Source: Octopus vulgaris (lineage: Eukaryota). Taken from it: a stretch of 64,000 bases of DNA. The position numbers and the translations under genes were made by a program. The first letter of the stretch is position 1. The number at the start of each line of letters is the position of its first letter. Positions 7,626 through 54,146 of the stretch are shown in pieces. The stretch covers positions 68,386,001 through 68,450,000 of the forward strand of contig OX597816.1 of assembly GCA_951406725.2 (NCBI GenBank), given 5' to 3'. A model generated the notes under the pieces. The model ran no database searches, had not been told where the DNA came from, and saw nothing but the letters and a program-made list of their open reading frames with translations.

Positions 7626-7722
<97 letters not shown>

Positions 7723-7922
7723 TAAATTAGGGTATCTACGAGATACCACCATGCTGAAAATATCAGCTATGAACCGACTCTAAAACCACCTTAAGTTTCC
7801 ATAGAGCAACATGGTGAAAAGACAAAGAGACAAGATGAAACTAGTGAAAAATTACTGGATAATTCTAGATCCCGGATTTCTGACTTTCCATTTAGAAATG
7901 GTTTGCCTCGTCAGTAGAATAC

Positions 7923-14446: not shown

Positions 14447-14483
<37 letters not shown>

Positions 14484-14487
<4 letters not shown>

Positions 14488-14750
14488 ATCCAAACATGAA
14501 CAAAGGGAAAATGCAAAAACGCGAGGACGTGGAATTAGTACAGTGTTATTGGACGTTCAGGAAAGGAAAGAAAAGAAAGCGGATTTCACATTTCGAGTGT
14601 AGCTCTTCATCAGAAATATAGAAAAAAGTCCAAAGAAGGGAAGACGGAGAAAGAAAATCGCCAACGATACACACGCCGTCACATATCGAAATGACCGGAA
14701 GGGAATGGGTGAAGAAAAAGTTCTTCCAAAGACAGGATAGTGCAAGAGAA
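14484..14750 (-). mobile_element. Short PLE-pLTR-like element with mini hammerhead (same family as 1385-1554)
   Basis: gttaatccaaac...cgcgaggacgtggaa...gacgttcaggaaag is the reverse complement of 1470-1554; abuts (TA)n. Confidence 0.75.
14583..14617 (-). ncRNA. Minimal hammerhead motif, canonical CUGAUGA, mutated site (GUG)
   Basis: Minus: attt-CTGATGA-a-gag-ctaca-ctc-GAAA-tg-TG-aaat. Confidence 0.65.
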
Positions 14751-19743: not shown

Positions 19744-20633
19744 TAAGGGTGATACCCAAAAGTAACCGGAAACGTTCTCTGCGGGACAAGTCCGTTGTAG
19801 CTCAGGCTTGCTCCGCTAGAAGCCACTTGATGCGACCTCCAGACATCAGTCTGCTGACCGGCGTCGTCATCTATATTCATACTGCTACGTGGGGTGTATT
19901 TGTTTTGTAGTGCTTCTCTCCTGCTTGTGGATTTTTGTGATGATTGAGAGGAAGAAAGAACCTGCTTCAGTGAAACTCTTTTTTTTTCTGCTGGGGAAAA
20001 TGGCGGCCGAATTATTTGACATGCTTCAAAGAGCTTACAAGGACGTTGCCATTAGCCAAACAGAAGTTTATGTGTGGTTTCCACGCTTTAAGATTGGTCA
20101 CTTGTCGCTTGAAGACCAACCTAGTTCAGGACGACCGTCGACCTCCCGAACGATTGAAAACATCACGAAAATTCGTGAACTGAACTTGGAGGACCGTCAT
20201 CGAACAAATGACGAATTTGTTGAAATGACCAGTGTGTCCTGAAACTCCAACTATCGAATATTGAGCGAGGAATTGCGAACGAAAAGAGTTGCAGCATAAT
20301 TTGTGCCTCGCTTGCTCATGGAACATCAAAAGCAGTCACGACGGAATGAGTTTCGTGAACTGAAAGAATAGCTAGAAGTTGATCTTGACTTTGTTTTTGA
20401 AGGTCATCACTAGTGACGAAAGCTTGTGCTACAGAATTTGCAAATTTGGAAAAGATGGAGGTGTTAAAAGGCATCACTTCGCAAAAATTCTAGCATTGCT
20501 TCGAATAGTGGAAAACAAGCTTGGACCGATGCACTGCTTCAAATGGAGAATAATTTGAACGCGATAAAAGTGTAAACATGTAAAGCTAAGTGAATAAAAT
20601 GATGTTGCGGTTTCAATTCAGTATCCCCTCATA
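19744..20633 (+). mobile_element. Mariner-like transposon, internally deleted transposase pseudogene
   Basis: VYVWFPRFK...LEDQPSSGRPST, FVPRLL, VITSDES, then a jump to the C-terminal WKTSLDRCTASNGE; degenerate TIRs (agggtgatacccaaaagtaaccgg / gcggtttcaattcagtatcccctc) in TA context. Confidence 0.9.
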
Positions 20634-20809: not shown

Positions 20810-21040
20810 CGAATGTGGCGGTCCTATAAAAAACGATATTACTGCTGTTTAAACCCCAAGAAAACATCTTTTCCAGCTGACTATCGACACAGTCTGTGTC
20901 CGTACAGAGTTTGCAAGCGACGTCATCCATTACATCTTCAGCCTTACGTGATACAGTCCATGCTTTCTGGGTGTATATCCATCTTCAGTGTGAGACAATC
21001 GCTGCCTGTTGATGAAAGCTTTCTTTACTTGCAAACACAA
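20810..21040 (-). mobile_element. Diverged relative of the 5097-5607 retrozyme-like unit
   Basis: tattactgctg...cccca.g..aacatc...tcgacac shared with 5155-5212; rod closed by gtttgcaag/cttgcaaac around an HHR-like motif. Confidence 0.55.
20953..20991 (-). ncRNA. Degenerate hammerhead motif
   Basis: Minus: aca-CTGAAGA-tgg-atatacac-cca-GAAA-gcatgg-AC-tgt; the U of the cleavage site is lost. Confidence 0.5.
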
Positions 21041-21331: not shown

Positions 21332-21881
21332 CAAATTATTACATTATATAAAAGGGCTTAGTAAAATAAATTACTTTGCCGCATACTGAACTCATTAGAA
21401 ATAGCAGCTAAAAAACTTTTTAAAACTATTTCTAATACTTAAAGAAAACCTCTCTCATATAGTGTTTGCTCAATTCAACTCACGAAAGTATGGGGGTAAA
21501 GACATCAAAAAATCAAATGCAAAGGTTATTTGAGAACGTACGTTTCAAGATTAGTCAACACGACACTTCTATCATCAGCTCAGAAACTCCTTGGTTTGGA
21601 TTTGAAAACACTGAAAGTGGGAGCATACCCTTTCGGCTTCTCATCGCTTCTGAAGATCTGCTCGCAACTAACAGTGCCAACACACTTTAAGTATTAGAAA
21701 TAGTTTTAAAAAGTTTTTTAGCTGCTATTTCTAATGAGTTCAGTATGCGGCAAAGTAATTTATTTTACTAAGCCCTTTTATATAATGTAATAATTTGAAT
21801 TCGCCTTAAATGGTCCCTTTGCATACTGAACACTTGGTGAAATTGATTAATAATTAATTAATTTTACCCTCAATTGTTGGA
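21332..21881 (-). mobile_element. PLE-type inverted-pLTR insertion with perfect 113-bp inverted repeat
   Basis: 21332-21444 is the exact reverse complement of 21685-21797; 84-bp one-sided extension; HHR in the spacer. Confidence 0.8.
21531..21582 (-). ncRNA. Type-I hammerhead motif, canonical core
   Basis: Minus: tgag-CTGATGA-t-aga-agt...act-aa-tct-t-GAAA-cgtacg-TT-ctca; ACGTACGT palindrome; GUU site. Confidence 0.75.
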
Positions 21882-47546: not shown

Positions 47547-47750
47547 GATAAATATTGTTAAAAATCACAATATATGATTTTTTTGGCTATATGATTTTCA
47601 TGTGCTGAGAGCTTTTCAGGCAGTGTTTTTAACACATCAGCGGCGCTAGTACTTGAAGATTGTGTTAAAAAATGCTGTCTGGCATGCTCTCACCACATGA
47701 AACTAATATCAGCACAAAAAAACATATATTGTGTTTGTTAAACAATTTTC
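47547..47750. repeat. Fold-back element (~85-bp imperfect arms)
   Basis: cacaatatatg...tttcatgtgctgagagc...ttaacaca pairs with tgtgttaa...gctctcaccacatgaaa...catatattgtg. Confidence 0.8.
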
Positions 47751-48589
47751 CCCTCTATAAATTTAGGGACAATGCAACCTGCAATTAACGATTTAGCAAA
47801 GAATCATATTTCATTGCAAAATATAAACCCTCTTTTGAATGCTTCTACCACGGATGACACTACTACAGGGATCTTAGATTAATACCAAACAGAAATATTG
47901 AAAACAATAGATATATTTGGAACAGTCGCTACCCACGAATTTATTTAGAACAATCCCTGCTACTACTGCTACTACAACCACTGTGAGGACACTTGACCAT
48001 TAAAGCAGATTCCACGGACAACCTTTACTACAGGACAATACCGCTCTTCTTCTTCTTCTTCTTCTTCTTCTTCTTCTTCTTCTTCTTCTTCTTCTTCTTC
48101 TTCTTTCCCTCTATCTTCTTCGCCTTCACTTTCTTCGGCCGCTGATGCTTCAACCATTAAACTGCAGAATCAAATATATCTTTGCAACCACAAACACAAT
48201 TTTTCAGATCTGCTACTATCTACCTTATGAACTTTCACAAAGGAAGAAAGAGAGAGAGAGTGAGAGAGAGAGAGAGAGACAGAGAGAGGGAGAGAGAGAC
48301 AGAGGCAGACAGATAGAAAAAAAGGAAACTGTCCTACCTATTTGGAAATATTTACAAAATATTTCATTTAATTTCTTCTTCAATTTAAATGTTTTTTCTT
48401 CCAAAATAATATCCATCTTTGTTTTACTCTTAGTTGAAAAAGTCGAAATGACAGAAACCGGTACTAATCATTACAAAATGTATTTCATGATAAAATTATT
48501 TTAGGCATTTTCTAACTTGTCATATTTTCCTTATAATTATATATAGCTTACAACAGTGAACGATAGTGTTAAGTATTGGATTAAATGAA

Positions 48590-51638: not shown

Positions 51639-52019
51639 GTATATATATATTTACAAAACATATTTGCATGAAGTACGAAAGATACAGAAAACTAAGAGCT
51701 GAAGATAACGTATAGCAGGTCCGACTGCTGTTCCTAGTGGGTCGGAATTACGAAACAATTATAATGTTAGCATATGGAGTGTGCAAAATGATAAAAGAAT
51801 ATGCAATGTGTAGTGCATGCTTATAAACACCCTCATACTCACGCGCGCATGAGCAATCGCACGCACACACACACATACAAGCACATACGCACACGCACTT
51901 ACACACACATGTATATATATATATACATACATACATATATATATATGTATATATACATACATATATATATTGCCTCGAATGGACTGGAGTATTTCTATTT
52001 TGGATGTATTTGCCACATG

Positions 52020-52072
52020 TATCACTGACGAAGAGAGGGCTCTTAGGAGCTAACTCTGAAATCGGTCTGATA
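52020..52072 (+). ncRNA. Type-I hammerhead motif, intact core, GUC site
   Basis: tatca-CTGACGA-agag-agg-gctc-ttag-gagc-taa-ctct-GAAA-tcgg-TC-tgata. Confidence 0.8.
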
Positions 52073-52522
52073 TGGTAATAATGGAATTTTTTAGAAATTT
52101 CTGTCGACCTTTTTTCGAGTAGCGTGCGTATTGTGAAAAAATTATATGGTTAATGGACAATATGTCCAATTTTTCGGCATATTTGGCATTAGAATTTTTT
52201 TCCTTTGCCCTCATTTATGAATTGTTTATAAATTTAACCGTTAAAGGTATTTTTTAATATGCTGGCCATTGATAAAATTTTTTTCGAGAAAATATTTTTT
52301 TTTGAAAAGAATTTTATCCTCACATTTGATATAAATTTAAGCGTTAACTTCCGAACTAACTAACTCACTCTGTGAGAGCCTCAGTTCAAATCGCACGTGA
52401 CTCGAATGGGCTGGAGTATTTCTATTTTGGATGTATTTGGGGTACTTAGTTGTGCCCATGACTTAGTGTTTGCTTCTTCCATGGGTATGTTTAAGTATCT
52501 CATTTATTTCTTTTGCCACATG

Positions 52523-52575
52523 TATCACTGACGAAGAGAGGGCTCTTAGGAGCTAACTCTGAAATCGGTCCGATA
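52523..52575 (+). ncRNA. Second hammerhead copy
   Basis: Identical except that the 3' strand of stem I is cgata. Confidence 0.75.
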
Positions 52576-52721
52576 TGGTAATAATGGAATTTTTTAGAAA
52601 TTTCTGCCGACCTTTTTTCGAGTAGCGTGTGTATTGTGAAAAGATTATATGGTTAATGGACAATATGTCCAATTTTTCGGCATATTTGGCATTAGAATTG
52701 TTTCCTTTGCCCTCATTTATG

Positions 52722-52810
<89 letters not shown>

Positions 52811-53735: not shown

Positions 53736-54146
53736 TTTTTTTTATTGCCCACAGGGGGCTAAACATAGAGGGGACAAACAAGGAAAGAAAAACGGATTTA
53801 GTCGTTTACATCGACCCCAGTGTGTTACTGGTACTTAATTTATCGACCCCGAAAGGATGATAGGCAAAGTCGAACTCAGTGGAATTTGAACTCAGAACGT
53901 AGCGGCAGAGGAAATACTTATTTCTTTACTACCCACAAGGGGCTACACACAGAGGGGACAAGCAAAGACAGACAAACGGATTAAGTCGATTACATCGACC
54001 CCAGTGCGTAGCTGGTACTTAATTTATCGACCCCGAAAGGATGAAAGGCAAAGTCGACCTCGGCGGAATTTGAACTCGGAACGTAACGGCAGACGAAATA
54101 CCGTTAAGCATTTCGCCCGGCGTGCTAACGTTTCTGCCAGCTCGCC
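53736..54146 (-). mobile_element. SINE A dimer (tail 1 + tail 1)
   Basis: Two cores; junction gaaatacttatttctttact. Confidence 0.9.

Follow-up and report, generated by a model that had tools for sequence, protein, structure and literature searches.

The tandem hammerhead locus examined here lies in a 64,000-nt window of the 2.8-Gb, microsatellite-rich octopus genome. It is best explained, with a probability of roughly 0.8, as an insertion of more than unit length of a high-copy, non-coding non-LTR retrozyme that was likely copied into (TA)n by a Penelope-like element (PLE) protein acting in trans. The element is a non-autonomous PLE derivative, that is, a non-LTR retrozyme. The preliminary description had proposed tandem type I hammerheads with a 503-nt unit of the retrozyme/PLE class; the class assignment holds, but the cut site and stem III had to be revised. 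No description of the family was found in the literature on hammerheads, retrozymes, and Penelope/Neptune elements in octopus and cephalopods, although supplements and repeat databases may hold it. The family thus appears to be new, while its kind is already known, and if the assignment is correct it would apparently be the first retrozyme family to be reported from the animal lineage in question.

Anatomy of the locus

Two CTGACGA cores, at 52025 and 52528, lie on the same strand with a spacing of 503 nt, each with a stem II and GAAA (Table 1). A core-motif scan of the window identified 30 CTGANGA sites, and these two are the only ones with a 4-bp stem II next to a CTGACGA core, confirming the direct repeat that had been reported. 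The 76 nt said to be missing from the upstream copy between tttg microhomologies are indeed absent, and the element is non-coding as proposed (no plus-strand ORF of at least 100 aa lies within it). TA-type tracts border it on both sides, also in agreement with the earlier account; such flanks are by themselves weak evidence in a window with 148 tandem-repeat rows. The folding z-score is -6.7, computed for the unit shifted by 5 nt (52068-52570). Stem III of the first hammerhead (HHR1) has a private G.U pair at its top. The conserved tail motif is a candidate protein-binding element. ARAGORN called no tRNA in the element, including at the B-box-like 9-mer.

Table 1 Features of the tandem hammerhead insertion (window coordinates)
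Feature	Position	Strand	Remark
Left (TA)n/TACA microsatellite	51903-51970	.	target side of the 5'-truncated junction
Upstream partial unit	51971-52012	+	5'-truncated start; ends at the tttg microhomology bordering the 76-nt gap
Type I hammerhead 1 (HHR1)	52020-52077	+	predicted cut after A52072
HHR1 stem I	52020-24/52073-77		
HHR1 core	52025-31		
HHR1 stem II	52032-57		
HHR1 stem III	52061-64/52068-71		
Complete 503-nt unit	52073-52575	+	predicted cut to predicted cut; non-coding, strongly structured
TATAAATTTAA motif at 3'-end site A	52227-52237	+	putative first internal start of reverse transcription
Conserved tail motif	52237-52268	+	2,860 genome matches; common to a second TA-targeted hammerhead family
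22-bp hairpin within tail	52271-52318	+	expanded in the young subfamily, shorter in older ones
Second TATAAATTTAA motif, 3'-end site B	52330-52340	+	103 nt past site A; putative second internal start
B-box-like 9-mer	52384-52392	+	sequence resemblance; kept across subfamilies
76-nt segment absent from upstream copy	52440-52515	+	first 61 nt form a stable hairpin (-24.5 kcal/mol)
Type I hammerhead 2 (HHR2)	52523-52580	+	stem III family-typical; predicted cut after A52575
Downstream partial unit	52576-52724	+	terminates at site A (short, tail-less end)
Right (TA)n tract	52725-52807	.	putative priming target

The junction left by the 76-nt gap has a single match genome-wide and is therefore private to the locus, which rules out the gap as a subfamily mark. 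It may have arisen when the reverse transcriptase (RT) jumped over the hairpin by way of the tttg microhomology near the 5' junction; a later deletion is the alternative. An intron with the GTAAGT-like motif upstream of the ribozyme as its donor was also considered and rejected: no matching splice joint was present in 8 runs, and the location of the motif inside a conserved hairpin counts against the idea.

A dispersed family of 5'-truncated partial tandems

The ribozyme pattern has 2,025 matches in the genome, compared with 0 for the reversed pattern, and covers several subfamilies that are 70-95% alike. The locus, which had been singled out within the window, is thus an ordinary and slightly decayed copy. 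Searching with the unit yielded 2,931 first-look candidates; among the 40 that were scored, the top copies are 92-98% identical. The element is dispersed and multicopy, with a GC content below 50% and a highly self-paired monomer. Its copies are partial tandems that lack part of the 5' end and terminate in (TA)n, and many have an inverted arm. Among the first 100 listed pattern matches (89 loci) there are 9 inverted pairs, 78 single motifs, and 2 direct pairs, the last an estimate that overlooks copies such as HHR1 that deviate from the pattern. Direct tandems with both cores intact account for at least 7 of the 28 other top-scoring loci, or 11 if changes outside the core are allowed (by eye). 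Up to about three units stand head to tail, without an ORF, at L009 and L013.

Insertion ends and integration

To describe the ends of the element we used 66 distinct insertions (29 top hits, 11 picked by tail region, and 26 in genome order). The 105 scored 3' ends fall into class A (39), class B (54), and other (12), and 93 of them run into a TA tract. Ends of classes A and B correspond to fixed internal sites 103 nt apart, and both coincide with TATAAATTTAA in the unit of the window. The breadth of class B reflects the shorter tail of the older subfamilies. Two outward 3' ends are present in 41 insertions, 31 of which are classifiable at both. These inverted insertions comprise 29 A+B, 2 B+B, and 0 A+A pairs (binomial p 1e-7 against independent use of the sites).

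The 5' ends do not cluster at the ribozyme. Loss of the element within 15 nt upstream of the cut site was seen in about 7-8% of 542 copies with the post-cut 25-mer, a by-eye figure built from about 21 of 42 (all) and 3-5 in the first 100 of 500 listed. At a control site it was about 8% or more (about 8 in the first 100 of 673 listed, by eye). Run-off of the RT at a cleaved 5' end was therefore rejected, since there is no excess of truncation over the control, and the lack of a peak suggests that the RT usually continues through the cut site.

Features of PLE-type insertions are present in the family: 5' truncation, partial tandem, inverted 5' copy, one-sided tail, and microsatellite target. 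PLE insertions are described as partial tandems in which an inverted copy is truncated at its 5' end and only one end has a tail (PMC8557442), and two internal RT starts account for such anatomy in the anole element PAc (PMC11167929). By this route, a PLE endonuclease would nick (TA)n, and reverse transcription would begin internally, at site A or B of the RNA, with UAUA pairing to the nicked end as a probable aid. The RT would then continue past the ribozyme site, its template being either a circle or an uncleaved multimer, and produce about 1.65 units at this locus. In inverted insertions, the two target strands would use different start sites.

A more specific version of this model is tentative, and we consider it rather improbable. 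In it, the 503-nt RNA would serve as a circular template with two telomerase-like UAUA priming sites, and a PLE dimer would prime the two strands from different sites. Two-site, strand-asymmetric priming of one RNA would explain both the predominance of A+B pairs (29 of 31) and the private variants shared by the arms. If true, this would be genomic evidence for strand-asymmetric two-site PLE integration, which was not seen in the one in vitro system (PAc). The thousands of insertions with near-strict pairing of A and B starts also constitute a dataset on tandem and inverted PLE insertions and their one-sided tails.

Template variants, transcripts, and cleavage

Variants within insertions point to one template lineage per insertion. 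Across 44 loci, shared non-majority variants occur at 0.86 per 100 nt within an insertion versus 0.14 between loci (about 6-fold), and differences at 3.3-3.6 versus 4.55 per 100 nt. Locus-private variants are shared between copies in 26 cases (16 loci) and confined to one copy in 182. Recurrent variants were concordant in 40 cases and discordant in 88, the latter largely at CpG and homopolymer sites. In the window, a rare G (52047/52550) is common to both copies; the G at 52550 combined with A at 52346 is an example of variants private to the locus. As judged from sequence comparison, such a lineage would fit a circle, an uncleaved multimer, or template jumps alike. A search of RNA-seq for the circle junction by copy-specific SNPs, as had been suggested, would be uninformative because the differences are private changes of the downstream partial copy: once HHR2 is joined to copy 1, the sequence returns to that of the family majority, and such a junction is already present in genomic tandems.

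Six runs presumed to be RNA, from at least five studies, yield contigs of mixed subfamilies that span much of the unit, and a seventh run has none. Several of these contigs end in (TA)n flanks, which fits passive read-through, and the signal is at the level of the family, with none of it locus-specific. A joint in run X13 that "goes back 503" was rejected as a circle; the contig has one ribozyme and ends in (TA)n and unrelated flank.

Folding computations, which leave out tertiary contacts, place the active folds above the precursor ensemble by 10.6 (HHR2), 13.3 (HHR1), 22.3 (both monomers), and 15.8 kcal/mol (double hammerhead). What disfavors them is possible pairing between the core and the 5' arm of stem III, an inactive fold that dominates locally by about 8-10 kcal/mol. 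The double-hammerhead fold is computed to be 6.5 kcal/mol better than two independent monomer folds, and the palindromic stem III regions of the two copies form a computed 11-nt duplex of -11.7 kcal/mol. These models suggest that cleavage would be slow or assisted, and in its corrected form the dimer fold is plausible. Cleavage after AUA would be slow; a double hammerhead joined by the palindromic stem III may carry it out, or a protein may assist. AUA is a natural hammerhead triplet and was the slowest of four tested in ELVd (PMC1636495). The predicted product is a 503-nt monomer (52073-52575), which a host ligase could circularize. Given the disfavored active folds and the 8 of 9 Xenopus retrozyme dimers without cleavage in vitro (bioRxiv 10.64898/2026.07.22.740005), release of the predicted unit RNA is not a given. 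Nor would a circle be required, since PAc transposes from unprocessed RNA without ribozyme cleavage (PMC11167929).

Within the retrozyme explanation, a variant with slightly less than even odds is that the template was uncleaved read-through RNA of tandem sources, or that the RT jumped between templates, with a conserved hammerhead, no stable 503-nt circle, and an inert copy in the window. The folding energies and the Xenopus dimers fit this variant, as does PAc, for which no RNA-seq read ends or starts at the cut site (PMC11167929). No promoter was identified in the element, and the two window copies differ at 5 of about 210 compared positions, indicating that the insertion is not recent. Against the variant stand the compensatory changes in all three helices across subfamilies, which imply selection on the ribozyme fold, and the accumulation of mussel, coral, and axolotl retrozymes as circles that is reported in PMC7229834.

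Relationship to Penelope-like elements

Many intact frames of 781 aa with RT and GIY-YIG domains are present in the genome; they belong to a TA-flanked family with a CxxxxCxxC linker (the GIY-YIG search gave 6,136 candidates, of which 150 were scored). A Neptune-like PLE protein is a candidate driver of the retrozyme family. Copies of the family are apparently enriched near Neptune-like elements, which shared TA targeting would explain.

The retrozyme copies could instead be the pLTR and tail of 5'-truncated coding PLEs, in which case the tandem arrangement would be incidental. PLE insertions are mostly 5'-truncated and hammerheads occur in pLTRs (PMC8557442, PMC4209133), and a single hammerhead is the rule in 78 of the 89 loci mentioned above. 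However, this is improbable given that whole units without an ORF stand head to tail, up to about three, in several subfamilies 70-95% alike. In addition, RT or EN sequence was joined to the element in 0 of 110 fetched loci (80 + 30, some overlapping, with 1.5-kb flanks), whereas the preliminary description had allowed for all homologues being pLTRs attached to full PLE ORFs. The few protein matches around the fetched loci are all outside the span of the element, and between the hammerheads of the window there is no RT plus GIY-YIG ORF, the intervening 503 nt being non-coding. The three cases viewed near PLE sequence (L044, L107, and L125) were rejected as partner elements because (TA)n sets the two apart. 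A comparison of 26 PLE loci with the unit revealed no shared sequence except separate nested insertions. An autonomous partner was also sought among 14 widened PLE regions and loci with the tail motif, which contain separate neighbors only.

Some of the PLEs in these loci are of interest in their own right. L044:1744-5006, L043, L045, and L046 contain a young Neptune-like PLE whose 781-aa RT/GIY-YIG frame is intact. This PLE has an overlapping upstream frame of 250-380 aa without a Pfam match, and no canonical hammerhead was found in it. A second Neptune-like family has a hammerhead-like motif in the 3' UTR (L048 and L051); its core is the variant CCGAAGA, and its stem III is palindromic (by eye). 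Within the window, 47747-47845 (+) is a short remnant resembling the C-terminus of a PLE endonuclease (33 aa, 52% identity, E 7e-4).

Hammerhead fold and cut site

The preliminary description had placed cleavage after GUC, giving an RNA with ends at 52068-52570. Covariation across subfamilies instead supports a cut after AUA, five bases away (52072 and 52575), and a unit of 52073-52575. For the fold alignment we used 32 motifs (the two of the window and 30 in genome order), 31 of which are distinct. In the AUA fold, stem III is AUCG/CGAU with the loop GUC, and stem I is UAUCA/UGGUA. Across the 31 distinct sequences this fold pairs 94.3% of all cells, with 94% for stem I, which lies outside the search pattern, and 100% for stem III, part of which was fixed by the pattern, so that some of its invariance follows from the search itself. 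At the first pair of stem I, 16 sequences have A-U and 13 have G-C, and a stem III pair switches between C-G (16) and U-A (14), although these are related sequences and the counts are not independent events. Compensatory changes are also present in stem II. The covariation score of the AUA fold was reached by 0 of 500 shuffles, and slid controls pair 30-45%. Stem III had been called near-palindromic and too short to be stable alone; it is palindromic, and its 4 bp and the C-G/U-A covariation contradict the second part.

The least probable reading is that these are minimal hammerheads with a stem III of 1-2 bp that cut after GUC as dimers only and release 52068-52570. GUC does follow GAAA in both copies, and dimer-active minimal PLE hammerheads are known (PMC4209133). 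However, this fold pairs 68% of stem I cells, lacks the core pair A15.1-U16.1 in 15 of 31 distinct sequences, and is computed to be 1.7-4 kcal/mol worse than the AUA fold. It also leaves an A.C mismatch beside the cut, in the first pair of stem I, in HHR2 and the other motifs with C after GUC (53 of 58 in the family). The T after GUC in HHR1, which allows a full stem I in that register, is a rare private C-to-T variant. An experiment built on the GUC reading would direct its mutations at the wrong helix, predict incorrect ends, and look for an uninformative junction. At both thresholds, Rfam identified no hammerhead model at the locus, and its below-threshold matches are mostly to the TA tract. 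The family thus supplies a covariation-supported AUA hammerhead that is missed by Rfam.

Comparison with known retrozymes and PLEs

The element resembles metazoan non-LTR retrozymes, as these are described in PMC7229834 and bioRxiv 10.64898/2026.07.22.740005. Both are non-coding, GC-poor head-to-tail repeats with one type I hammerhead per unit, a self-paired monomer, thousands of motifs, and co-existing PLEs. Its two consecutive units with complete hammerheads agree with the definition of Li, Clavereau & Pollet 2026. The unit of 503 nt compares with 150-450 nt in Cervera & de la Pena 2020 (PMC7229834) and up to 972 in Li. The octopus family differs in its dispersed partial tandems and inverted pairs in place of long arrays, and in its AUA triplet, 4-bp palindromic stem III, and extended bulged stem II. 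A further difference is its (TA)n targeting with two fixed ends. Retrozymes are tied to PLE pLTRs in bioRxiv 10.64898/2026.07.22.740005, where 1 of 9 dimers was cleaved, whereas no homologous PLE pLTR was found among the 26 PLE loci compared here.

With the Neptune/Naiad PLEs (PMC8557442), the family shares 5' truncation, partial tandems, an inverted 5' copy, a tail at one end, and a microsatellite target; with PAc (PMC11167929) it appears to share two internal RT starts downstream of the hammerhead. In contrast to these PLEs, the element has no ORF, and its tail is about 103 nt, compared with 30-40 in those (PMC8557442, PMC11167929). Its putative start sites have the same 11-nt motif, which begins with TATA and matches the target, while the PAc start lacks homology to the DNA that is cut. 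Inverted insertions almost always have different sites at their two ends; in vitro, by contrast, the strands did not differ for PAc. Like the minimal PLE hammerheads that cleave as dimers (PMC4209133; Lunse et al. via PMC6765202), the motif is of type I with a short stem I and a palindromic stem III region. Unlike in those sources, stem III closes intramolecularly (4 bp with a 3-nt loop); the motif is therefore not minimal, and dimerization may be optional.

Other hammerhead-like motifs and repeats

The window contains four further hammerhead-like motifs, located in other TA-terminated repeats. The one at 7700-7914 (-) is a hammerhead-like core in a copy of a second TA-targeted repeat family, and this copy is about 80% alike to L117, L124, and L134. 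The tail motif is common to this second family and the retrozyme family, and short and long ends are present in L047. Three motifs on the minus strand (14450-14613, 20850-20988, and 21400-21578) each precede a (TA)n end by about 140-200 nt, and the repeat with the motif at 14613 is present in at least eight fetched loci. A different type I hammerhead occurs as an inverted pair in L039, at 455 (+) and 208 (-), and has a long stem II, a palindromic stem III, and a GUA cut site.

Other repeats include a frame at 19820-20239 (+) of the window with a Mos1 transposase HTH domain (PF17906), which is probably a mariner remnant, and a 184-nt tandem repeat in two copies at 53737-54101, a SINE-like sequence that is also in L118. 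L108:6540-7140 is a near-perfect inverted repeat of about 600 nt that is GC-rich amid AT-rich surroundings.
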